From Patescibacteria group bacterium (GTDB taxonomy: Bacteria; Patescibacteriota; Patescibacteriia; UBA10025; JAHIVO01): a stretch of 64,000 nucleotides of DNA. Position numbers and translations under genes: made by a program. Positions 20,713 through 34,342 of the stretch are shown one piece after another (positions within the stretch are counted from its first letter, which is position 1; each line of letters opens with the position of its first letter). Under the pieces are notes generated by a model. That model ran no database searches. It was given only the letters and a program-made list of their open reading frames with translations, and was not told the DNA's origin. The stretch covers positions 547,097 through 611,096 of the forward strand of contig JBAZKE010000001.1 in the NCBI GenBank assembly GCA_041650915.1, written 5' to 3'.

Positions 20713-20956
20713 AAAATTATTAAAAAAACTTGACTCGTAGTACTACAAAGGCAAGAAGTAAGTTTGATGCTCATTGGAAGTATTGATAAACTGAGTTTCT
20801 TGCCGAATGCTTGCTTGCTGATAAGTACGCCACTTATTGGAATGCTATAAGTGTTTGAAAAATGTGAATGTATTATATCCTCCGATTTTTTTTATGTCAA
20901 GCGCAAAGGCTGCTTGCGACGGTTGTAAAGATTTTTTTGCGCTAATATTAGCTATT

Positions 20957-23988: not shown

Positions 23989-25293
23989 TTATAAATTATC
24001 TATAACTTCTTTAAGAAATTTCATTCTTGGAGAAACAAATTCATCCTGGGTAATTCTAGAAGCCGCATACATTGCATTTTGTGTTTTATGTTTTTGCCGG
24101 TGCTGGTATTTTCTTGGATAGTTATTTTCGATGCTTCCATTAGGAAGTATAAATACGCTGTATTTTTTTAGCATTTCAATTAAGCTCACTTCCGGTTCTG
24201 TAAATCTCATCTGAATTTTTTTCTGAATAATATTAAGGCCGGTATCATAAAGAGCATCGCGATCAAGTAAAACACAGTATGGCAAATCAAAAAGATCAAG
24301 AACATCCGTATATACGTCAATATTACTCTTACCGTAAACTTGGATTACCTTAATATCTTTTGTACCAGTATAAAATTTATTAATTAATTCCCGCATTAAA
24401 ATGTGATCAGACGGTCCTTCCACGAGCAGGACTTTATCCGCAAAAAACATTTCAGTATTATCGGCATTAAGCTCCTGTCTCAGTCTCTCGTAATTTATCC
24501 TTTTTCCGGTGAGTCTTGGAGAGTGAACTTTAGTAGTGTCACCTTCTTTTGTTACGCGAAAAATTCGGTGTAAATTTTCTGGACGAACGAAATTTGTCGA
24601 GTGGGTCGTTAAAAAAATTTGATTATCCAGGTTTCTTTCCTCCAAAATACTTATAAGTTTCTTAATAAGTGCTGGATGGAGGTGCACTTCAGGTTCTTCG
24701 AGTAATAAAACGGAGTATACTGGGTGGAAGAGGTACAAGAGTATTTTAAAAACCTGCCGAAATCCCGCACCGAGGCGCTCGTAGGGGCGCGTGGCGCCTT
24801 CATGCTCAATCGTGCTTGAAGTGAACAGTTTTCTATCGATCATAATTTGGGGAATGTACTGCTGCAATGTACGATGAAACAGCTCAAATTGATCGGGATA
24901 TTGTACTACTAAACTCTCAAAATCATGCTGCACTTTTTGAATTGAAAGATGATCAGTGGCGCATATTCTTACCATACGGCTAGATAGAATTTCCTTGCCT
25001 TTGTCAGGTGAAATTTCTTTGTCATCAAGCAAAAATTTTGTAAGATCCGCGAGTTGTACCACGTCGAGTATGCTTTTTTTTCGATCGAGCGTCAGACTAA
25101 AACTAGCATGAATATCACACTCTGGATCATGAAGCCGGATGCTGTTTCCGTTGTAAAGCCTGTAGATTGAATCTAAAATGTTTGTTTTGCCTGCATTATT
25201 TGCCCCAATAAAAATATGCAGAATACCCAGGTCATGCAGAACCAGTTTTTTTATGCTCTTATACCTGTTGATGGTGATTTTTTCAAGACGCAT
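23989..25293 (-). CDS. Compact OLD-family nuclease: ABC-type ATPase fused to a TOPRIM domain.
   Basis: Walker A is FIGANNAGKTNILDS. Walker B is VLLLEEPEVHLHP, with an H-loop at TTHS. The C-terminal TOPRIM has KVLLVEGPSDHIL (catalytic Glu) and a DxD in VLLDRDALYD. Confidence 0.7.
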   Translation of the reverse strand: MRLEKITINRYKSIKKLVLHDLGILHIFIGANNAGKTNILDSIYRLYNGNSIRLHDPECDIHASFSLTLDRKKSILDVVQLADLTKFLLDDKEISPDKGKEILSSRMVRICATDHLSIQKVQHDFESLVVQYPDQFELFHRTLQQYIPQIMIDRKLFTSSTIEHEGATRPYERLGAGFRQVFKILLYLFHPVYSVLLLEEPEVHLHPALIKKLISILEERNLDNQIFLTTHSTNFVRPENLHRIFRVTKEGDTTKVHSPRLTGKRINYERLRQELNADNTEMFFADKVLLVEGPSDHILMRELINKFYTGTKDIKVIQVYGKSNIDVYTDVLDLFDLPYCVLLDRDALYDTGLNIIQKKIQMRFTEPEVSLIEMLKKYSVFILPNGSIENNYPRKYQHRQKHKTQNAMYAASRITQDEFVSPRMKFLKEVIDNL

Positions 25294-25304: not shown

Positions 25305-25757
25305 TTACGCATACAGTTTATAAAAAAAATCTTCCAATGCGCTACGTTGTGCTTGGTTTGGACTGATTTTAGTTCTCTTTTTTTTAATTCTTTTTATCGC
25401 ATCTTGAGGCGTAAGACCGTAGTGAAGAATATAGTATGCTGCAACTAAAGTTGGCGCGCGTCAGCGTCCTTCGTTACAATGAACATAGCAGCGCATTTTT
25501 TGTGCAATGAGGTCTTCAATAAAATGTGATCCGATCATGAGCTGCACAGGAGACGGAGCAGTAAAATCAACTGTCGGAAGCCACAAAAATGATTCAACGC
25601 CTGATGGTGAATCTTCTTTTTCCTGCTGAAGGTCAATATCAGCTTTAATCCCCTTTTTTAAAAGCAACTCAAAATGTTTTTTACAGCAAATGCTGGTGCC
25701 GATATACAAGTACGGTTCGATGCGCGTATAGTTCAAATGGCGTTCGTTGGTTGTCAT
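25305..25757 (-). pseudogene. Dual-specificity (Cys-based, CX5R) protein phosphatase gene interrupted by one in-frame TGA in the P-loop.
   Basis: The ORF 25461-25757 ends ...YVHCNEGR then TGA. Reading through in the same frame continues RAPTLVAAYYILHYGLTPQDAIKRIKKKRTKISPNQAQRSALEDFFYKLYA then TAA at 25305. The readthrough reconstitutes a canonical 150-aa DSP (HCxxGx[G]R + AYLM-like helix). The TGA occupies the conserved Gly position, so it is one substitution from GGA. Confidence 0.6.
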
Positions 25758-25850: not shown

Positions 25851-27644
25851 CTAATCTAGCTGGATTTTTTGTCCTGGTTGGATTGGTTTACCTGGTTGTG
25901 CATGTGTTTCTGGAATGGATTTTCGGGCTTTATGCTGAAAAGGTTTATTCGTCCGAAGCATCGTCGGTGAAGACTTCATTGTATGATCAGTTATCTTACC
26001 CCTGCTCTTAAACGGTTTGGGTTGCATTGAAAACGCTTCGCTTAGTGAAATTTCTTTTTCCGGGCCTTGGACACTAACAGTTTCAAGATCACGAATAGGT
26101 ATATATTCCTTTTTTTTCTTTTCCGGTGGAAGTTTAGAAATTTTACTTATTTCAGGAGCAGAAAATGAGCGAATTGGAGGCGGATTTTGGCCATTCTTTT
26201 TTTGTGAAGCGTGGATTTTTTCAACAAATTGGTTATCCGCTTCTGCCATTGCCTTATGCATTTCGTGAACTCCGCTCCAGCGCATGATTTTATCTTCAAC
26301 AAGCTCTCGTGATTTACTATACCGTTCGCGTGAAACACTTAAAATTTTATTCTTGTTATTAGTTTTGCCTGTAAGCGGAGGCAGTGTTTTTGCGGAAAAA
26401 GGTTCTGAAGCTACCCCGTCTATCATCAGCTTCATGTAAACATTATACTTCGTTAAATTAAGAAGATCCTCCTCCATAAAAATCGGATAAAATTCTTTCG
26501 CAAGAAATTCAGCATCGGCGGCTCCGACGCGAAAACAGACAATAGTACCGATATTACCGAATACCGCGGCACGGACAGTCTCATCAAGCTGCTCGACGTA
26601 TTGATGGGCGATTATTAAATTAAGCCTGTATTTTCGCGCTTCCGATAAAATGCTCGCGAAGCTTTCAGTGGCAAAATTTTGGAATTCATCTACATACAGG
26701 TAGAAATCCTCTCGCTCATTTTCTGGTATATCGACTCTGCTCATCGCTGCGAGTTGGAGCCTGGTAATCATCATGGCACCGAGCAGAGATGAACTGTCTT
26801 CTCCGATTCTACCTTTCGAAAAATTAAGCAAAAGAATCTTTTTGTTATCCATTATTTCACGCAAATCAATGGTGCTTTTTGGCTGACCGACGATATTACG
26901 GATAACAGAACTCGATAAGAATTGCCCAACCTTATTCTGGATTGGGGCAATTGCCTCATTTCGAAATCGGTCATTATATCCGGCATATTCATCAACCCAA
27001 AAACTTTTTACAATCGGATCCGTGACTTTATCGATGACCTTCTTTCTATACTTTTTATCGACGAGAATGCGGGAAATACCGAGCATTGTCGAGCCTGGAT
27101 ACTCGAGCAGTGCAAGTATGCAATTATTGAGGATATATTCCATTCGGGCGCTCCATACCCCTTCCCATATTTTTGTAAAGACGCCCATGAGCCCAGATGC
27201 AACAAGGTGGCGCTGGTCGGGATCGACATTTTCCAGAACATTAAATCCGATGGGATACTCCAGGTCTGCCGGATTGAAATAGACCACATCATTAACCCGG
27301 TATGATGGTATGTAGTCGATAACCTTTTCAACGAGATCGCCATGCGGATCAACGAGCGCCAAACCCCGGCCTGCGCGAATATCCGAAATGACCATGTTTT
27401 CAATCACGGTTGTTTTTCCCATGCCTGTCTTGCCAATCAGATACATATGCCGACGCCTATCATCAACTCTAATGCCGAATTTTCGTGCTAAATTTCGAAA
27501 ATTCGTTTCGGCGAAGGGTGTTATTTCTCTTTCGAGGTCGGCTGTCATGGTTGTATTAAGCTGTCGGTAAATTTGGCGGCGGTACTCCTTTTTGTTCTGC
27601 AGGTGGCATGGCAATCCGCCCAAGCCTCTCCGGTGCTTGCTCAA
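25851..27644 (-). CDS. TrwB/TraD/VirD4-family (type IV coupling protein-like) P-loop ATPase: soluble, with a long basic disordered C-terminal tail.
   Basis: HMYLIGKTGMGKTTVIENMVISDIRAGRGLALVDPHGDL parallels TrwB Walker A plus the VIVDPNGD box. Walker B is FYLYVDEFQNF. There is no N-terminal TM. The start could be M33 at 27548. Confidence 0.55.
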   Translation of the reverse strand: MSKHRRGLGGLPCHLQNKKEYRRQIYRQLNTTMTADLEREITPFAETNFRNLARKFGIRVDDRRRHMYLIGKTGMGKTTVIENMVISDIRAGRGLALVDPHGDLVEKVIDYIPSYRVNDVVYFNPADLEYPIGFNVLENVDPDQRHLVASGLMGVFTKIWEGVWSARMEYILNNCILALLEYPGSTMLGISRILVDKKYRKKVIDKVTDPIVKSFWVDEYAGYNDRFRNEAIAPIQNKVGQFLSSSVIRNIVGQPKSTIDLREIMDNKKILLLNFSKGRIGEDSSSLLGAMMITRLQLAAMSRVDIPENEREDFYLYVDEFQNFATESFASILSEARKYRLNLIIAHQYVEQLDETVRAAVFGNIGTIVCFRVGAADAEFLAKEFYPIFMEEDLLNLTKYNVYMKLMIDGVASEPFSAKTLPPLTGKTNNKNKILSVSRERYSKSRELVEDKIMRWSGVHEMHKAMAEADNQFVEKIHASQKKNGQNPPPIRSFSAPEISKISKLPPEKKKKEYIPIRDLETVSVQGPEKEISLSEAFSMQPKPFKSRGKITDHTMKSSPTMLRTNKPFQHKARKSIPETHAQPGKPIQPGQKIQLD

Positions 27645-28965
27645 GTGGCAGGTCTATCGGTGCTTGTGCTTTCTTCGAATCAACTTTTTGCACGGACGGT
27701 ACTTTAACGTCGATAATCGGAAAGTGCCATATCGTCGCGAGTTCTTCGATATTGAGAACATAATTTTTCCGTCCCCTCCATAAACTCCGATAGCGGTAAG
27801 ACCAGAGTAGCCGCCGTTTTCTAGCTAATAACCTTGATTTTGCAAATAAAAATTTTGCCCTTGAAAATGTTTTCATATCTGGTCTGAATCCATTTGTATT
27901 CTGCGCGGCAAACTGATGAACAGTTCCGATAACGCCATCGAGTCCTTTTGAAAGCTGGGCGTTCTTTTTTTTTGCTCCGTAAATCATCCGCAGTTTTGAT
28001 TCATATCCAATTTTTGAAATTTTCATTCCTATCGCCTCGACAATATCCCGCTCTGCCGGTGATAAGTGCTGCATTTGGCTTGGCCAGTCCTGTATATTAC
28101 GCTGGCGTTGTGGCCCTTCCATTTCAGTAGGAGGTATTATTGAAGCGGTGAATGATTCTGACAATCCTTTCCCAATTTCTCTCGGAAAATAAAGCCAATC
28201 GGCGACCGATTTTGCGCCATCTTTTTTACCAATAAGTTTATTGATAAGCGATATACCTTTTTGCTTCCAATCTTCTGTGACCGGAGAAATGACTAGCTGA
28301 TACCAAAGATGCTCACCCGGACCCATTCTGCTCAGTATCTCCATGAGAGAAGCCATCGGATCTAAAAACTTTTGTGATAGGCTGTGTTCAAAATTCGGGT
28401 ACGTCTTAATCGGATAAAGATAATTATGGGCAAGCTTGAATTCCGTTCCCCAGACGTCGTATTCGGGATGGGGCAACTCAAGCGGTTTCGGAAGCATATC
28501 GATGTAATCTTCGACTTCCGTGATTTCTGCTTCAGGGTATTGGGCATAAATCGCGGCTTCAACTAGATCTCTGAATTTTACCGGGGTTCGTATTAGAAAT
28601 TGAATATATCCTTCAATGCTGACGATTTCCAGGCTGACCCCGAGCTGAGTTTTCCCTTCGACAAATCTTTCATACAAATCGTACGTTCGAATAAATCCAA
28701 AAATATGCGAAAATATATGTTCGACAGCTTTCGGGCTCTGCTCGTTGCCCCGGGGGATATCAATAGCAAGCAGGACAAAAGGTATTTTTGACTGATACTT
28801 ATTCTGTATATAAAGTACCCAACCTTCCCAACCGCCCCATAGGGAAACGATAATAACTATAATCCAGCCCCCGTGCAAAAATAAAAAAAACATAGCACCA
28901 AAGGGGCTGCCAACATCGGGAAATAAAGTAAGTGCTTGATCTGGTCCTACGACAAATGGATTCAT
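27556..28965 (-). CDS. Hypothetical membrane-anchored protein (N-terminal TM helices plus a roughly 400-aa soluble domain). It is the partner of the coupling-protein-like ATPase.
   Basis: The N-terminus FGAMFFLFLHGGWIIVIIVSLWGGWEGWVLY is hydrophobic. There are no recognisable catalytic motifs, and the C-terminus is basic. It lies 15 bp downstream of the regulator gene and abuts the ATPase gene. Confidence 0.4.
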   Translation of the reverse strand: MNPFVVGPDQALTLFPDVGSPFGAMFFLFLHGGWIIVIIVSLWGGWEGWVLYIQNKYQSKIPFVLLAIDIPRGNEQSPKAVEHIFSHIFGFIRTYDLYERFVEGKTQLGVSLEIVSIEGYIQFLIRTPVKFRDLVEAAIYAQYPEAEITEVEDYIDMLPKPLELPHPEYDVWGTEFKLAHNYLYPIKTYPNFEHSLSQKFLDPMASLMEILSRMGPGEHLWYQLVISPVTEDWKQKGISLINKLIGKKDGAKSVADWLYFPREIGKGLSESFTASIIPPTEMEGPQRQRNIQDWPSQMQHLSPAERDIVEAIGMKISKIGYESKLRMIYGAKKKNAQLSKGLDGVIGTVHQFAAQNTNGFRPDMKTFSRAKFLFAKSRLLARKRRLLWSYRYRSLWRGRKNYVLNIEELATIWHFPIIDVKVPSVQKVDSKKAQAPIDLPLEQAPERLGRIAMPPAEQKGVPPPNLPTA

Positions 28966-28980
28966 GTTGATCGTAGTTTG

Positions 28981-30102
28981 CTAGGATGGGACAGCAAGAC
29001 TGTACGTACCATCCTCATTTTTTTTGAATTTTGTTTTATCCGTAAGAGCAAGATGAATCGTATTTTTTTTAACGATTCTTTGTTCGAGCACTTTCTCAAC
29101 AAGCTGCGATCGAGTTAACGATTCGCTAGATCTATTGAGAATGTCAATCAGTACATTGGAAACAACGCCAGGTTTATAACCCCACTCTTTCAGTGCATAG
29201 ATTCCTCGTCCGACGAGAACATATCTGCTGTTGAGAATAAGTTCATTGTGCACCGTGGGCGGATAGGCTTTACGGGTATCAAATTTGACTTCGTTTATTT
29301 TTTGAGCAATCTCTGTAAAGTGCATTGGTTTCCCATGCCGCTTTAAAACCAGATAAATTTTATCATTCATTCTTTTTGGAACAATGCTGCCCCATTCCTT
29401 CAACCCAAATTCATCAAATGGATTTCTTGATATACTATTGCTCATATTCAAGTATGACGTAACAGCTTCCTCGGTAAGCAACTGCGGATTATGTTTAAAT
29501 AAATCTGTTTCCTTAAATTGCGAAAGAATCGAACTTATTGTTGCCGGCTTGCCATTTTTTGCGATAGTATCGAAGAGCGTCTTAATAGAATCTCTTATTA
29601 AATGTATCGGGGCATGAGAAAGCTGCCAGGATTGCTTAAAAACTTCATCGGGTCTTATAGTTTTAAATTTCTTTTTTAAAAGTTCTGAAATAACAAATAA
29701 AATATTTTGCCGGTTCATTTGGCTGTCGCCTACGACCTGTAAAAGTTCAGCGAGCAGATCGTTTTCTTCCATGGCCGCACCGTGTTGTTCGAGAACCGAA
29801 TAAACAGTATTTTCGATCGAAGCGATAAGTTCATTGAAGTTTTTAAGCTGGCTAATTTTTTGTATAGCGGTTTTTTCAATTTGACGAATTCTTTCCCTGG
29901 TAACTTTATAGGTCGCACCGATTTCTTCGAGAGTCTCTTTTTCTTTCCCGAGTAATCCGAATCTGCGACGAAGAACATCTTCTTCGCGTGTAGTAAGGGC
30001 CTTTAAGAGCTGAGAGACGGTATCGCTTGGATTGAACTGCTCGATTTGATTTGTTTTTTTACTGGAGATAACCTTATCCAGTATTGAATTTCCCTCTTCC
30101 AT
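28981..30102 (-). CDS. Putative transcription factor: N-terminal sigma-70 region 4 (4.1-4.2 HTH) and a C-terminal HARE-HTH-like winged helix.
   Basis: Residues about 35-90, DTVSQLLKALTTREEDVLRRRFGLLGKEKETLEEIGATYKVTRERIRQIEKTAIQKI, closely resemble RpoD region 4. The C-terminal KIYLVLKRHGKPMHFTEIAQKI...NSRYVLVGRGIYALKEWG resembles the HARE-HTH of the RNAP delta subunit and restriction enzymes. Confidence 0.5.
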   Translation of the reverse strand: MEEGNSILDKVISSKKTNQIEQFNPSDTVSQLLKALTTREEDVLRRRFGLLGKEKETLEEIGATYKVTRERIRQIEKTAIQKISQLKNFNELIASIENTVYSVLEQHGAAMEENDLLAELLQVVGDSQMNRQNILFVISELLKKKFKTIRPDEVFKQSWQLSHAPIHLIRDSIKTLFDTIAKNGKPATISSILSQFKETDLFKHNPQLLTEEAVTSYLNMSNSISRNPFDEFGLKEWGSIVPKRMNDKIYLVLKRHGKPMHFTEIAQKINEVKFDTRKAYPPTVHNELILNSRYVLVGRGIYALKEWGYKPGVVSNVLIDILNRSSESLTRSQLVEKVLEQRIVKKNTIHLALTDKTKFKKNEDGTYSLAVPS

Positions 30103-30143: not shown

Positions 30144-30172
30144 AGTATAGCATACTTTTATTATTGTGTCAA
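30144..30172 (-). promoter_or_regulatory. Near-consensus sigma-70 promoter for the sigma-r4/HARE-HTH regulator gene.
   Basis: On the minus strand: TTGACA (complement of 30167-30172), 17 bp, then TATACT (complement of 30144-30149). This lies about 40 nt upstream of the ATG at 30102. Confidence 0.45.
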
Positions 30173-30266
30173 GATAATTCATCGTTGTAACATATTTTTT
30201 AATTTTAAGCAAGTGAACTATGGAAAAAAAAATCGCCCCATTTACGAAACGAATCTAGCAACGTTT

Positions 30267-31172
30267 TTAAATTGTTTTTTTTCGGTTTATAAAATTATGC
30301 CACACAATAAGAAATGGGCTTGCTACAAATATAGAAGAGTACGTTCCGACAATAATACCTACAATGAGGGCTAATGTGAAATTCGCTATAGATTGACCGC
30401 CAAATAAGTAGAGAGCAAGTAAAACAAGCAGAGTTGTTAATGATGTGTTAATTGATCGGATAAGTGTTTGATTAACGCTTTCATTGACTACTTCTTCAAA
30501 AGTTCTTTGGTAGCTAATTTTTAGACGTTCACGTATGCGATCGTAAACAACGATTGTATCATGAACGGAAAATCCTAATATAGTGAGAATTGCGGTAATA
30601 AAAAGCATATCGATTTCCGTGTTGAAAAATTTTCCCATGATTGCAAAAAAACCAATAACGATGGTGATATCATGAAGAAGTGCGAGGGTCGCGCCAAATC
30701 CGTAAACCCAGGATTTCACTGCTCCACTTGCTACTTTTCGAAACGCGAATGAGATATACAGTATGATAAAAATGAGTACTAATACAATTGCAATGATAGC
30801 CCGATTACGGAGCCCTCGTCCGATAGTCGGACCGATTGATTCAAAGCTCTGTTCTGTTACGGATCCGTATTCCTGGTTCAGGTTTTCCAAAATAATTTCT
30901 CGTGCAGAATTATCGATTTCCCTGAGACGCAGCGTCATATCTGTTTCACCGATGGGTTGAACGCGAACAGCTCCATATTGAAGCTTATCGACAGCTTCCT
31001 CGACCGATTGAGCTGCAGGCCGGTCTTGATTGAATTTAACCTGCATGAGAGTACCGCCAGTAAAATCAATGCCAAGTTTCAACCCTCCAGACAAAATCGC
31101 AACTATACTTGTAGCAATCATGATACCGGAGATGGTAAACCAAATTTTTCTATTTTGAATGATTTTAAACAT
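30267..31172 (-). CDS. secF: Protein translocase subunit SecF.
   Basis: GIDFTGGTLMQVKF opening and six TM helices, with the SecDF C-terminal domain. Confidence 0.85.
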   Translation of the reverse strand: MFKIIQNRKIWFTISGIMIATSIVAILSGGLKLGIDFTGGTLMQVKFNQDRPAAQSVEEAVDKLQYGAVRVQPIGETDMTLRLREIDNSAREIILENLNQEYGSVTEQSFESIGPTIGRGLRNRAIIAIVLVLIFIILYISFAFRKVASGAVKSWVYGFGATLALLHDITIVIGFFAIMGKFFNTEIDMLFITAILTILGFSVHDTIVVYDRIRERLKISYQRTFEEVVNESVNQTLIRSINTSLTTLLVLLALYLFGGQSIANFTLALIVGIIVGTYSSIFVASPFLIVWHNFINRKKTI

Positions 31173-32853
31173 TTGTACTATTCAGCTTTGATTTTAGTGC
31201 AGGATTTGACCAGCTAAACCAGTGTGGATGTTTTTCGAGCCATTGTGATACTGAAAGTCGCAAAAAAGTTCTGGTAATTGTAATTGCTGAAAACATACTC
31301 ACGACGACACCAATGCCAAGTGTAATTGCAAATCCTTTCATGATACTTGTACCGAACCACGCGAGAATAATGCAGGTGATAATACTTGAAATATTTGAGT
31401 CTCGTATGGATGGCCAGGCGCGATTGAAACCTTCTTCTACTGCTACTTTAAGGGGCTTCCCCGTACGTAGCTCTTCACGGGAACGCTCAAAAATCAATAC
31501 ATTAGCGTCTACTGCCATTCCAATTGATAGGATAAATCCCGCAATACCCGCGAGCGTAAGAGTTATCGGAATCAGCTTAAAAAGGGCAAGAATCAAAAGT
31601 GCGTAAACGATGAGCGCCAATACCGATAATAATCCAGGCAGGCGATAGTATATAATCATGAACAGTGCGACGAGTATAAGCCCTACCAACCCCGCGAAAA
31701 AACTTTTTTGGATTGACTGCTCTCCGAGCGTAGCTCCAATATTTTGTTGTGATACGAGCGTAATCGGTACTGGCAGTGCTCCAGCATTGAGCCGCTGTGC
31801 GAGTAGCTTAGCTTCTTCAAGAGAAAAACTACCGGAAATGACTGCATTTCCATCACGAATAGGTTCATTGACTCGAGGCAGTGAAATTGGAGAGCCATCA
31901 AGGTATATGCCAACAATTTTATTGACATTGCGTTCCGTGATTTGTGAAAATAATTCCTTGCCTTCCGTATCGAATTCGAGTGATACCTGTGGTTCGTTTG
32001 TATTCGGATCAAATGCAACGGCAGACCGGCTAAGATTTTTTCCCGAGAGTTCGGTATTAGCAAAATCTGTATACCCTTCGGTTGATTGCTTGGAAAAAAG
32101 TATATGGCTCGCTTGCGCCTGGTCACCATCAATTGCTGTTTTTTTTATGATGTGGTAGCCAAACTCTGTTTCAACAATCTGCGGATAGACTTCACCAATT
32201 ATAGCTTGGTCAAAAACAGTATTTGCAAATTCTGGCACCATCATATCGCGTGTGAAAAAACCGAGATCTCCGCCTCGTTGTTCGCCAGTATCAGCATCTT
32301 TGTTTCCTGGATCTTGGCTATATTCATTAGCGAGTGCACCAAAATCCGCACCGGGAGCTGTTGCGAGTGCGAGTACACTCTCAGCTTGCTTTTTTGATTC
32401 TTCATTAAGGGTGATTATCGCAGTTTTTTCTTCTTCTGTTGGCTCAACAGTCACTTCTTCTTTAAATTCGAGCAGCGGGGTCTCTCCTATCATTTGAATA
32501 GCTTCAGAAATATTGGTGATGCCTGCAAGTTCAACAATGATGCGCCATTGGCTTCCCGCTTGATTTGTCTGAACAAAAGGTTCCGATACGCCGAAAGCAT
32601 TTACCCGATTTTCTATGACATCACGCACGCCCTCAAGCGCGGCCGCCTTGTCGCTTTCTTCAATTTGTGAGGTGTCCGCATCATATACGAGGTTGGTACC
32701 ACCGAGTAAGTCAAGCCCGAGGTGCACTTTTACCTCACGAAAAAAAGTGCCAATCTTGATATCGGGTCCACTCGGATAGTCAATAAATCCAGCTACAACT
32801 GTTAATACAACGATACCTGCAAATGTAAGCCAAACTTTCTTACGCAAAGTCAT
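31165..32853 (-). CDS. secD: Protein translocase subunit SecD with an embedded parvulin-type PPIase-like domain in the periplasmic P1 region.
   Basis: The SecD core is present (LGLDLLGGTNLVY; C-terminal six-TM bundle). Residues about 135-260, ...ALATAPGADFGALANEYSQDPGNKDADTGEQRGGDLGFFTRDMMVPEFANTVFDQAIIGEVYPQIVETEFGYHIIKK..., match the PrsA/SurA parvulin signature. Confidence 0.8.
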   Translation of the reverse strand: MTLRKKVWLTFAGIVVLTVVAGFIDYPSGPDIKIGTFFREVKVHLGLDLLGGTNLVYDADTSQIEESDKAAALEGVRDVIENRVNAFGVSEPFVQTNQAGSQWRIIVELAGITNISEAIQMIGETPLLEFKEEVTVEPTEEEKTAIITLNEESKKQAESVLALATAPGADFGALANEYSQDPGNKDADTGEQRGGDLGFFTRDMMVPEFANTVFDQAIIGEVYPQIVETEFGYHIIKKTAIDGDQAQASHILFSKQSTEGYTDFANTELSGKNLSRSAVAFDPNTNEPQVSLEFDTEGKELFSQITERNVNKIVGIYLDGSPISLPRVNEPIRDGNAVISGSFSLEEAKLLAQRLNAGALPVPITLVSQQNIGATLGEQSIQKSFFAGLVGLILVALFMIIYYRLPGLLSVLALIVYALLILALFKLIPITLTLAGIAGFILSIGMAVDANVLIFERSREELRTGKPLKVAVEEGFNRAWPSIRDSNISSIITCIILAWFGTSIMKGFAITLGIGVVVSMFSAITITRTFLRLSVSQWLEKHPHWFSWSNPALKSKLNSTNV

Positions 32854-32941: not shown

Positions 32942-34342
32942 CTACTCCTGCACGAAAACTCTTGCGCCAATTGGCGTAGCATTATAAAGCCATTCAGCGT
33001 TGGGATACGAAATATTTACACAGCCATGGCTCATTCGGTGCCCAAAATTATTATGCCAATAAGCACCATGGAGCAGTCTTGAGCCGTCGAATCTCATGTT
33101 CCAGAGGGTATTCGGAAGGTAGTAATCCGGTCCGGAATACAGTTTACTGAAAATCTTTTGAGAAATCGTGAAATCACCCGGGAGAGTTGGCGTGCCGGGA
33201 AGCCCGGTGGAAACAAGGAATGTATTGACCAATTCATCGTTATCAAACGCCCACAATCGTTGCTCGGAAAGGTCAACCAGAATTTTATCGACAATGCCAT
33301 CGCCATTTTTACGTCCAGGGACGGCAAGAATTTCGCCATAACCATCTTTATCAATATCGCCTGCAGCGGGAAATATACCGCCTCGAAATTCTGATTCGTA
33401 CGGAAATAAATCATTCTTTAATCTGCCATTTGCTTCAAAAACTTTTATATGAGGGCCGCCGCCGCTGTTAGCTGCCACAATAATTTCATCGTATCCATCT
33501 GCATCCAAGTCTCCGGCGGCAACGTTAACTCCCCTGGTAAATGAATCAGGGAACGCTTTAAATTCAGCGATGATATAATCTTGTTGAACATTTACGATTT
33601 TTATCCAAGCGACATCGCCGGTTTGAACGGCAAACACCAATTCATCACTTCCTCCGTTTACTTCAGCCGAGGCGATGCTTACTCCTCCGGTAAATTCAGG
33701 ATGGAATGGAAAAATATTGGTAGGAAGTTTCTCGCCAAATCTATTAAAAGCGTACACACGAGGTTCTACGCCCGCCGATGGTGCAATTATGATCTCAGGT
33801 AATCCGGCTGCGTCTATATCAGCGACGGCAATGTTGATGCCGGATTTAATCGCAGGATCGAGTGCAAAGAAACCCGGAGTAAAGATTGGCTTGCCATATC
33901 GGTTAAATATCCTTATGTGTGATGCACCATCCGACTTTGGAGCTGTGATAATTTCAGAAAAACCGTCGCCATCCAGATCAGCACATGCTATATTTACCCC
34001 TCCTTTAAAATTTTGTTCATAAGCAAAAAAGCCGGGAGTAAATTTTGGATTTCCAAATGCATCAAAAACTCGAACTTGTGGTCCTCCGCCCAGACCTGCA
34101 CCGAGTACTATTTCTTCATACCCATTACTGTCAAGATTACAAACTGCAATTGAAGCTCCTCCCTGAAAATTGTGCGCGAATCCTAAAAAAGCCCTTTCAA
34201 ATGATAGTGGGTGTGTACTAAAAATTTTAACTTCGGGGCTCCTGAAATCCGTAGCGTACGTGCTCAACGGTAATATAAGAAGAAGGGCTGTGATAAATAT
34301 CGCACACCCTAAGTATATCGTATTTAAGCTAATTTTACCCAT
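32942..34342 (-). CDS. Secreted FG-GAP/VCBS-repeat beta-propeller fused to a C-terminal YkuD-type L,D-transpeptidase domain.
   Basis: N-terminal signal/TM. There are six or seven repeats of the form ADLDGDGFSEIITA, GDLDADGYDEIIVA and GDIDKDGYGEILAV. The C-terminal HGAYWHNNFGHRMSHGCVNIS is the LDT catalytic His...Ser-His-Gly-Cys motif. Confidence 0.65.
   Translation of the reverse strand: MGKISLNTIYLGCAIFITALLLILPLSTYATDFRSPEVKIFSTHPLSFERAFLGFAHNFQGGASIAVCNLDSNGYEEIVLGAGLGGGPQVRVFDAFGNPKFTPGFFAYEQNFKGGVNIACADLDGDGFSEIITAPKSDGASHIRIFNRYGKPIFTPGFFALDPAIKSGINIAVADIDAAGLPEIIIAPSAGVEPRVYAFNRFGEKLPTNIFPFHPEFTGGVSIASAEVNGGSDELVFAVQTGDVAWIKIVNVQQDYIIAEFKAFPDSFTRGVNVAAGDLDADGYDEIIVAANSGGGPHIKVFEANGRLKNDLFPYESEFRGGIFPAAGDIDKDGYGEILAVPGRKNGDGIVDKILVDLSEQRLWAFDNDELVNTFLVSTGLPGTPTLPGDFTISQKIFSKLYSGPDYYLPNTLWNMRFDGSRLLHGAYWHNNFGHRMSHGCVNISYPNAEWLYNATPIGARVFVQE

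Follow-up and report, generated by a model that had tools for sequence, protein, structure and literature searches.

The protein considered here, which we call the target, is encoded on the minus strand at positions 28981-30102 of a 64-kb stretch of a Patescibacteria contig (the window, by which we mean that whole stretch), and it joins a sigma-70 region 4 to four winged helices. Its closest described counterparts are the group-1 sigma-70 factors (RpoD/SigA), the delta subunit of Firmicutes RNA polymerase (RNAP; RpoE, TIGR04567) and SEML1_0294, an entry in the transposon-sequencing (Tn-seq) tables of Southlakia epibionticum (Wang et al. 2023, PMC10633639, Tables S1/S2). With group-1 sigma factors the target shares region 4, as judged by sequence homology (E around 1e-13), by fold (root-mean-square deviation, rmsd, of 1-2 Å) and by the recognition helix VTRERIRQIE. 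It lacks regions 1.2, 2 and 3, however, and is therefore unable to open promoters or bind core polymerase as sigma does; a winged-helix array replaces the sigma C-terminal tail, and the basic activator-contact patch of sigma70 (R596/K597/R599) is only partly kept. With delta it shares a delta-type HARE-HTH, but this domain is internal in the target (amino acids (aa) 237-312 of 373) and N-terminal in delta, and delta's polyanionic C-terminal tail is replaced by a basic winged helix. The target was rejected both as a true sigma factor, having no region 2 or 3, and as an RNAP delta subunit, scoring 40.8 bits against a TIGR04567 cut-off of 42 and having no acidic tail.

SEML1_0294 is annotated "RpoS" and has 349 aa, of which 27-72 match Sigma70_r4 and 225-283 match HARE-HTH; parsed by structure, it divides into one tri-helical and three winged domains, and it is flagged both as a core family and as Patescibacteria-enriched (PMC10633639). 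It is class-I essential at all three time points (24 input insertions, 1-2 recovered), and according to the authors class-I essential genes show an enrichment in genetic information processing (PMC10633639). Directly downstream, SEML1_0293 encodes a 921-aa TrwB-type ATPase (ATPase domain at 402-719) that is non-essential, with 87-120 insertions recovered, and the true RpoD of S. epibionticum is a different gene, SEML1_0063 (PMC10633639). The text of that paper mentions neither SEML1_0293 nor SEML1_0294, which only the tables list. SEML1_0294 shows the architecture and neighbourhood of the target family: its two Pfam domains match those of the target in identity, order and spacing, and it has three winged domains, a length of 349 aa against 373, and a position directly upstream of a TrwB_AAD_bind ATPase. 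The two loci, compared by architecture, differ in that the S. epibionticum ATPase and a DUF8128-like part (recognized by length) are in one 921-aa protein; the roughly 400-aa N-terminal region of SEML1_0293 has a length consistent with a fused DUF8128-like domain.

DNA-binding modules that give specificity to ATPases of the VirD4/FtsK superfamily are known from F TraM, pCF10 PcfF and the winged-helix gamma domain of FtsK and Streptomyces TraB. TraM and PcfF dock oriT DNA on the coupling protein, and the gamma domain directs FtsK or TraB. Like these relaxosome and coupling-protein adaptors, the target is encoded beside such an ATPase in nearly every genome. Unlike TraM and PcfF, to which it has no sequence or fold relation, it is chromosomal, phylum-wide and apparently essential, and it has no known relaxase or oriT. 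The ATPase downstream of the target differs from a type IV coupling protein in having no N-terminal transmembrane (TM) anchor of its own and no type IV secretion system (T4SS) or relaxase partner locus in the window. A 2025 survey counted 5,713 VirD4-type homologues in 2,918 Patescibacteria genomes, 148 of them near virB4, and described the S. epibionticum VirD4 homologue as not essential and possibly exapted, with no mention of a DNA-binding partner (PMC12102498). Our literature searches for the combination of sigma region 4 and HARE-HTH, or for a Patescibacteria sigma factor together with a winged helix, returned nothing relevant. Databases record the architecture and an essential-gene table lists the gene, and no description or experiment was found in the literature.

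We propose, with somewhat less than even confidence, that the target most likely serves the transcription apparatus as an essential DNA-binding factor of general function. Four features suggest that it acts generally, at promoters or on RNAP: the -35-reading residues are invariant, one domain is delta-like, the family is fused or adjacent to a sigma factor in some genomes and the S. epibionticum counterpart is class-I essential. The data show the domain content, the invariant residues, the promoter, the gene order and the fusions, and the essentiality of the counterpart comes from the literature; the DNA target, the RNAP contact and any contact with the ATPase are inferred. The target would be an abundant, essential, general DNA-binding protein whose region 4 would read -35-like TTGACA hexamers as sigma-A does, with the basic HARE-HTH and winged helix 4 holding neighbouring DNA or RNAP and the acidic winged helices 1 and 2 possibly acting as a spacer or a partner-binding surface. 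It would act with, or compete against, sigma-A region 4 at many promoters and would not be a local regulator. The pairing with a membrane-anchored ATPase would reflect a second, dispensable activity, plausibly delivery of DNA to the ATPase motor.

Sigma region 4 and the -35-reading residues

A preliminary description of the gene, made from the sequence alone, had likened its N-terminal 90 aa or so to region 4.1-4.2 of a primary sigma factor, and this proved correct. Pfam Sigma70_r4 matched aa 32-83 (E 1.6e-14, 53.6 bits against a cut-off of 24.1), and the NCBIfam models of RpoD, RpoS and their relatives matched only at approximately aa 6-92, against the last 70-85 model positions. The RpoD models among them cover aa 15-90. 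A phmmer search of the PDB returned primary-sigma region 4 of Bacillus, Staphylococcus, Thermotoga, Thermus, Mycobacterium and E. coli at E values of 3e-13 to 1e-8, the best matches being SigA region 4 of the first three. Region 2, region 3 and other parts of a sigma factor were not matched by Pfam, NCBIfam or phmmer against the PDB. Using Foldseek, the target region 4 aligned to region-4 structures with an rmsd of 1.1-2 Å.

The PDB alignments place target residues 31-85 on residues 546-600 of E. coli sigma70, and R69, E70, R73 and Q74 are therefore equivalent to sigma70 R584, E585, R588 and Q589, which, from established structural work on region 4 with -35 DNA, we take to be the -35 base contacts. 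All four residues are invariant in 48 target homologues of 51-68% identity. In the family alignment the invariant positions comprise T68, R69, E70, R71, R73, Q74 and E76, in the string T-R-E-R-x-R-Q-x-E. Judged by its sequence, the region 4 of the target is primary-sigma-like, and the family goes back to a primary sigma factor's C-terminal end, fused to four winged helices.

Domain architecture

The target open reading frame (ORF) and its parts were delimited as follows, using domain searches and an AlphaFold2 model built on the 48 homologues (mean predicted local distance difference test, pLDDT, 86.9; predicted TM-score, pTM, 0.72).

28981-30102, minus strand: target ORF, 373 aa, ATG start, stop codon included; sigma region 4 and four winged helices
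30031-30102, minus strand: N-terminus, aa 1-24, predicted disordered (pLDDT below 50 for aa 1-12), with the motif S-I-L-D-K-V...F-N-P
29839-30030, minus strand: sigma-70 region 4.1-4.2, aa 25-88, with recognition helix VTRERIRQIE (Pfam, PDB matches, Foldseek)
29614-29838, minus strand: predicted winged helix 1, aa 89-163, acidic, weakly conserved, no sequence family (AlphaFold2)
29395-29613, minus strand: predicted winged helix 2, aa 164-236, acidic, weakly conserved, no sequence family (AlphaFold2; Foldseek matches 8b9x, 1lva and 5okc)
29167-29394, minus strand: winged helix 3, the HARE-HTH, aa 237-312, RNAP-delta-like (Pfam, TIGR04567)
28984-29166, minus strand: predicted winged helix 4, aa 313-373, basic, with a conserved R-x-V-K-K-N-T helix (AlphaFold2, family alignment)

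The C-terminal part had been described as resembling HARE-HTH, and domain searches bore this out. The Pfam match (PF05066) scored 36.6 bits against a cut-off of 25.9 (E 6e-9) and in target homologues spans profile positions 3-71 of 71, and the delta model of low-GC RNAP, TIGR04567, covered aa 244-307 with positions 4-70 of 83. No delta structure came up when the PDB was searched with the HARE-HTH segment as a single sequence. This domain is the most conserved and the most basic of the target, with a mean column identity of 85% and a family mean charge of +6.3; region 4 (+4.5) and winged helix 4 (+3.7) are likewise basic and well conserved. Charge and conservation thus split the target into basic, conserved domains (region 4, HARE-HTH and winged helix 4) and acidic, variable ones (winged helices 1 and 2). 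Winged helix 1 has a net charge of -2.3 and a column identity of 0.52, and its modelled secondary structure runs H89-106, E110-112, H113-124, H128-141, E146-149 and E158-161 (H, helix; E, strand). At the N-terminus S6, I7, L8, D9, K15, F23 and P25 are invariant or nearly so in the family alignment.

The central part of approximately 150 aa had been left unassigned. Pfam and NCBIfam gave no sequence-family match there, in keeping with that description, but its AlphaFold fold indicates two further winged helices that belong to no sequence family. For the part of the target beyond region 4, Foldseek against the PDB returned the tandem winged-helix proteins SelB C-terminus (1lva), UFL1-DDRGK1 (8b9x) and Ctf18-Dcc1 (5okc). 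These have three or four consecutive winged helices, as the target does, but the likeness is at the fold level only, with 9-14% identity, high rmsd and unrelated biology.

That the target is built of modules otherwise known from RNAP subunits, as had been stated, agrees with both domain matches being significant. The further suggestion of a sigma mimic or an anti-sigma factor fared less evenly. Mimicry of sigma region 4 is compatible with the data, since the -35-reading residues are invariant, but no anti-sigma family was matched in the target by Pfam or NCBIfam. Membership in a known defence system was rejected, as PADLOC gave only a region-4 match to MzaA. A phage-like protein was rejected as well: the BFVD fold search gave matches to sigma region 4 only, none at E<=0.001, and no viral or effector-like relatives. 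The target has no signal sequence.

Promoter of the target gene

The preliminary description also assigned the gene a strong TTGACA-17-TATACT promoter of its own. This promoter is present at 30172-30144 on the minus strand, has a TG extended -10 and lies downstream of a hairpin that follows secF.

30167-30172, minus strand: -35 hexamer TTGACA of the target's own promoter (consensus scan; TTGAC kept in 65 of 72 orthologue loci)
30144-30152, minus strand: extended -10 TGcTATACT, separated from the -35 by a 17-nt (nucleotide) spacer; family consensus TATGnTATAmT
30233-30252, minus strand: terminator-like hairpin and T-run 3' of secF, dividing secDF from the transcription unit of the target

Sites with at least 11 of 12 consensus matches number six on both strands of the window, the target promoter among them. 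A TTGAC-N-N14-TG-N-TA-NNN-T site is found 5' of the orthologue in 65 of 72 loci (consensus TTGACa-N14-TATGnTATAmT), a degree of conservation far above chance. Beyond the standard promoter elements, the 65 aligned promoters have no extra operator in common. The sole perfect 12/12 TTGACA-17-TATAAT promoter of the window (20872-20900, minus strand) is ahead of infA-rpmJ-rpsM-rpsK-rpsD; because this site heads a ribosomal-protein cluster, it shows that promoters of the E. coli consensus type serve highly expressed genes in this organism. The target promoter belongs to the same near-consensus class. The target is transcribed from its own conserved near-consensus sigma-A promoter as the first of three genes.

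A separate observation concerns the 12-nt palindrome GCTAAWWTTAGC, which is repeated in intergenic DNA and may be a candidate operator of a dimeric regulator. It matched 29 times in 1.28 Mb of loci, against approximately 5 matches expected from base composition, and in many loci it lies 40-140 nt 5' of the start codon of target-family genes. Positions include L001 11200, L003 12969, L004 17321, L008 19980, L021 3613, L022 9856, L023 9936, L027 2418, L040 9892 and 20600, L051 185, L052 4715 and L057 4679. The copy in the window is at 20941-20952, just after alaS, and the 5' leader of the window's own target gene does not contain the palindrome.

Distribution

The target family is Patescibacteria-wide, with proteins of 350-400 aa. 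An identical database protein, on a Patescibacteria metagenome-assembled genome (MAG) contig, is annotated "sigma factor-like helix-turn-helix DNA-binding protein". The best 120 homologues are 329-405 aa long (nearly all 365-405), all come from Patescibacteria, and both domains are recorded in all but three of them. In a scan of one genome per species, at least 597 species have a relative; the best 80 of these are all candidate-phyla-radiation MAGs, namely Kerfeld-, Buchanan-, Doudna-, Kuenen-, Falkow-, Uhr-, Azam- and Andersenbacteria and Microgenomates. With the sigma part removed (aa 90-373), a HMMER search of 1.84 billion representatives found 1252 clusters (at 50% identity) at E<=1e-3, 423 of which were at E<=1e-30.

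Organism names on some of these MAG records are unreliable. Records titled 'uncultured Gammaproteobacteria bacterium' (loci L009, L010, L014, L019, L022, L025-27, L030, L032-33, L041, L048-49 and L055) show the Patescibacteria-type order of secDF, sigma4-HARE, DUF8128 and ATPase, and L075 is titled 'Candidatus Saccharibacteria' with closest relatives named Doudnabacteria.

Fusion to a complete sigma factor and the parB context

A second genomic context was found in which the family meets a full sigma factor. The 800-aa protein P0246 consists of a complete sigma factor (regions 2, 3 and 4) fused to a complete member of the target family, and it occurs on five contigs from different samples. Its gene directly follows parB (for example L081 6001-8403, L082 4214-6616 and L083 1551-3953). 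The recognition helix of its second region 4 reads TRQRIQQ, not TRERIRQ, so two of the four -35-reading residues differ there. A related lineage has parB, then a separate sigma gene of 455 aa, then the target-family member P0243 (L084 2540-4198), which carries an extra C-terminal DnaA domain-IV helix-turn-helix (HTH; Bac_DnaA_C, E 1e-22) and an N-terminal extension of approximately 110 aa. Because P0243 was seen on one 5-kb contig only, the variant could be an artefact of assembly or gene calling. That family members are fused or adjacent to a sigma gene in one lineage does no more than suggest an anti-sigma function.

Gene order and the downstream pair

Two genes follow the target on the same strand.

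27556-28965, minus strand: DUF8128 (PF26449) membrane protein, 469 aa, starting 15 nt past the target stop, with an N-terminal TM helix
25851-27548, minus strand: VirD4/TrwB-type ATPase, 565 aa when Met33 of the listed ORF is taken as the start, beginning 7 nt past the DUF8128 stop

The preliminary description had asked whether the target always neighbours this membrane/ATPase pair, and in nearly all genomes it does. Gene order was counted in 80 genome loci, with the downstream counts restricted to the 70 that have at least 3.5 kb of downstream sequence. DUF8128 adjoins the target in 67 of these, and in all 70 the ATPase is found no more than 4.5 kb downstream, always on the same strand; median gaps are approximately 50 nt (target to DUF8128) and 8 nt (DUF8128 to ATPase). 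Directly upstream, secF is found in 53 of 63 loci. In one locus, L087, a suf operon stands upstream of the trio instead, and the target gene shares 14 nt with that of DUF8128. An independent metagenomic sample, in which ordinary sigma factors diluted the family members (25-39% identity) to 18 of 80 loci, again had DUF8128 following the target wherever the flank sufficed, with one exception. Because gene order and promoter are both conserved across loci, target, DUF8128 and ATPase form a conserved three-gene transcription unit with its own strong promoter.

The DUF8128 assignment of the 469-aa protein comes from precomputed Pfam annotation. Its AlphaFold model (pLDDT 80) has a long N-terminal membrane helix followed by alpha/beta domains, and the top 13 Foldseek matches in the PDB were all TrwK/VirB4 of the R388 T4SS (best E 4.8e-6, approximately 445 aligned columns). 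Searched with a hidden Markov model (HMM) built from the DUF8128 alignment, the PDB sequences gave no match, so the resemblance to VirB4 is one of fold, seen with Foldseek. The protein accordingly has a predicted fold like that of the VirB4 N-terminal domain.

The ATPase matched Pfam TrwB_AAD_bind (PF10412; 44.8 bits against 20.5), TraG-D_C (25.2 against 22) and DUF87, and has the Walker A sequence GKTGMGKTT and a Walker B. NCBIfam places it with TraD and VirD4-like proteins, with all equivalog scores far under their cut-offs, and its closest solved relative is TrwB (PDB, 9e-6). It has no TM segment; the membrane helix sits in the separate DUF8128 protein. The most fitting reading of the pair is a single VirB4/VirD4-like motor divided between two genes. 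No relaxase, virB4, virB6 or other T4SS gene was found in the 64-kb window. Two further observations on the ATPase are that PADLOC mad8 (E 3.8e-16), a domain-level match, scores better than the HerA models, and that, by eye, its C-terminal residues, approximately 130 of them, seem to be of low complexity, with much K, P and Q.

The downstream genes had also been described as an island. They have the GC content of their surroundings and the same order in 67-70 of 70 related genomes, which argues against this, and the target as part of a genomic island was rejected for the same want of a GC shift and for its conserved synteny. The window is otherwise a housekeeping region without GC anomaly, containing a mur/ftsW operon, secA, secDF, alaS, mnmA, pilB and a ribosomal-protein cluster.

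Weighing the explanations

The essentiality data bear most directly on function. If SEML1_0294 is orthologous to the target, an indispensable target beside a dispensable ATPase rules out a role confined to serving or regulating that ATPase, and the earlier idea of a regulator dedicated to the downstream genes is disfavoured accordingly. Conversely, a purely housekeeping factor without a link to its neighbours is only half of what was found: the target is broadly conserved and apparently housekeeping, but it is very strongly linked to the two genes downstream. Several points weigh against our proposal of a general transcription factor. SEML1_0294 is an apparent counterpart, a putative orthologue on the grounds of architecture, size and gene position. 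Its essentiality could in principle stem from lost repression of a toxic operon. The linkage to DUF8128 and the ATPase holds down to 25% identity and across different upstream flanks and is unexplained by a purely transcriptional role, and the -35-reading residues are not kept universally, as the sigma-fused TRQRIQQ variant shows.

The linkage is explained best, and essentiality worst, if the target instead belongs to a three-part membrane DNA motor as its adaptor or DNA-recognition subunit, which would bind a DNA site or state and hand the DNA to a VirD4-type hexameric ATPase anchored by DUF8128. We consider this possible but rather unlikely, and it is compatible with a transcriptional role. 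Adjacency and co-orientation of the three genes in 67 and 70 of 70 loci, with short gaps, favour it, as does the retention of their order with a different upstream flank (the locus with the 14-nt overlap) and among members of 25-39% identity. So do the resemblance of DUF8128 to the VirB4 N-terminal domain, the additional N-terminal region of approximately 400 aa in SEML1_0293, and the 5,713 VirD4-type homologues of Patescibacteria, nearly all of which lie far from virB4 and may have been exapted (PMC12102498). However, SEML1_0294 is essential and its ATPase is dispensable, so the ATPase cannot be the sole partner; the window has no relaxase or other T4SS gene, and in some lineages the target gene lies by sigma and parB genes with no ATPase pair nearby. 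The two roles might be combined in a free-standing, essential, phylum-specific 'region 4 plus delta' protein that would read the -35 in trans as an added part of the transcription machinery and tether promoter DNA or RNAP to a membrane-anchored, split VirB4/VirD4-type ATPase, a version we regard as doubtful.

The exact TTGACA conserved 5' of the gene in most loci, the intact -35-reading residues and the position of the target as first gene of its operon would also fit an autoregulator, whose region 4 would occupy the TTGACA of its own promoter, exclude sigma-A and keep the membrane/ATPase operon at a safe level, the gene being essential only because de-repression is toxic. This seems improbable: the 65 aligned promoters share no further conserved operator, a transposon in the first gene usually lowers rather than raises downstream expression, and five DNA-binding-type domains, a phylum-wide HARE-HTH identity of 85% and a fusion to full sigma seem excessive for a local repressor. 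A little less probable again is a chromosome-organising or origin-proximal protein, acting in the nucleoid or in segregation with the ATPase as an FtsK-like pump. Several tandem DNA-binding-type domains, the parB neighbour in one lineage, the DnaA C-terminal DNA-binding domain of one variant and a partner ATPase of the FtsK/HerA/VirD4 superfamily all point that way, but the DnaA_C fusion is on a single 5-kb contig, a sigma gene stands between parB and the family member in the parB lineage, and nothing in the window indicates a replication origin. Finally, since cultivated Patescibacteria are epibionts (PMC10633639), the target could be an effector that a type IV-like route delivers into the host, there to mimic host sigma region 4 and redirect host transcription, given its primary-sigma-type region 4 and the coupling-protein-like ATPase beside it. 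We hold this to be barely credible: the protein has no signal sequence, no secretion channel genes lie nearby, the coupling-protein homologue is dispensable and the protein essential, and no viral or effector-like structural relatives were found.

Patescibacteria account for a large share of bacterial diversity, and the majority of the essential genes specific to their lineages lack a known function. The target family, present in hundreds of species at least, is made wholly of recognizable nucleic-acid-binding parts and keeps the -35-reading residues of sigma, and its look-alike is essential in S. epibionticum, the only Patescibacterium with genome-wide fitness data. If the target is a general transcription factor, it would represent a new design of the bacterial transcription apparatus in which a sigma domain is provided in trans; if it also acts as the tether described above, transcription or chromosome handling would be linked to a DNA motor exapted from conjugation. 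The invariable pairing with DUF8128 and a VirD4-type ATPase offers a first clue to the thousands of 'orphan coupling proteins' of Patescibacteria. Going by the predicted fold, these may be VirB4-like motors made of two pieces and served by a DNA-binding partner of their own, and a split T4SS-type ATPase may explain why so many have been reported.

Other features of the window

An Rfam search of the window found nothing. Between the ATPase gene and mnmA are an OLD-family ATPase-TOPRIM nuclease gene (23989-25293, minus strand; PADLOC Old E 4.5e-36, GajA-like) and a truncated dual-specificity phosphatase fragment (25461-25757, minus strand). Both occur in just 4 of 80 related loci, which marks them as a variable insertion of the defence type where gene order is otherwise fixed. 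SecD (31165-32853, minus strand) contains a PpiC-type peptidyl-prolyl isomerase (Rotamase_3, E 2.5e-19) at aa 150-239, within the periplasmic P1 region, an unusual fusion of a foldase to a translocon accessory protein. The gene at 32942-34342 on the minus strand encodes a 466-aa exported protein with FG-GAP repeats and a C-terminal YkuD L,D-transpeptidase, and this gene is found upstream of secD in 19 of 80 loci.

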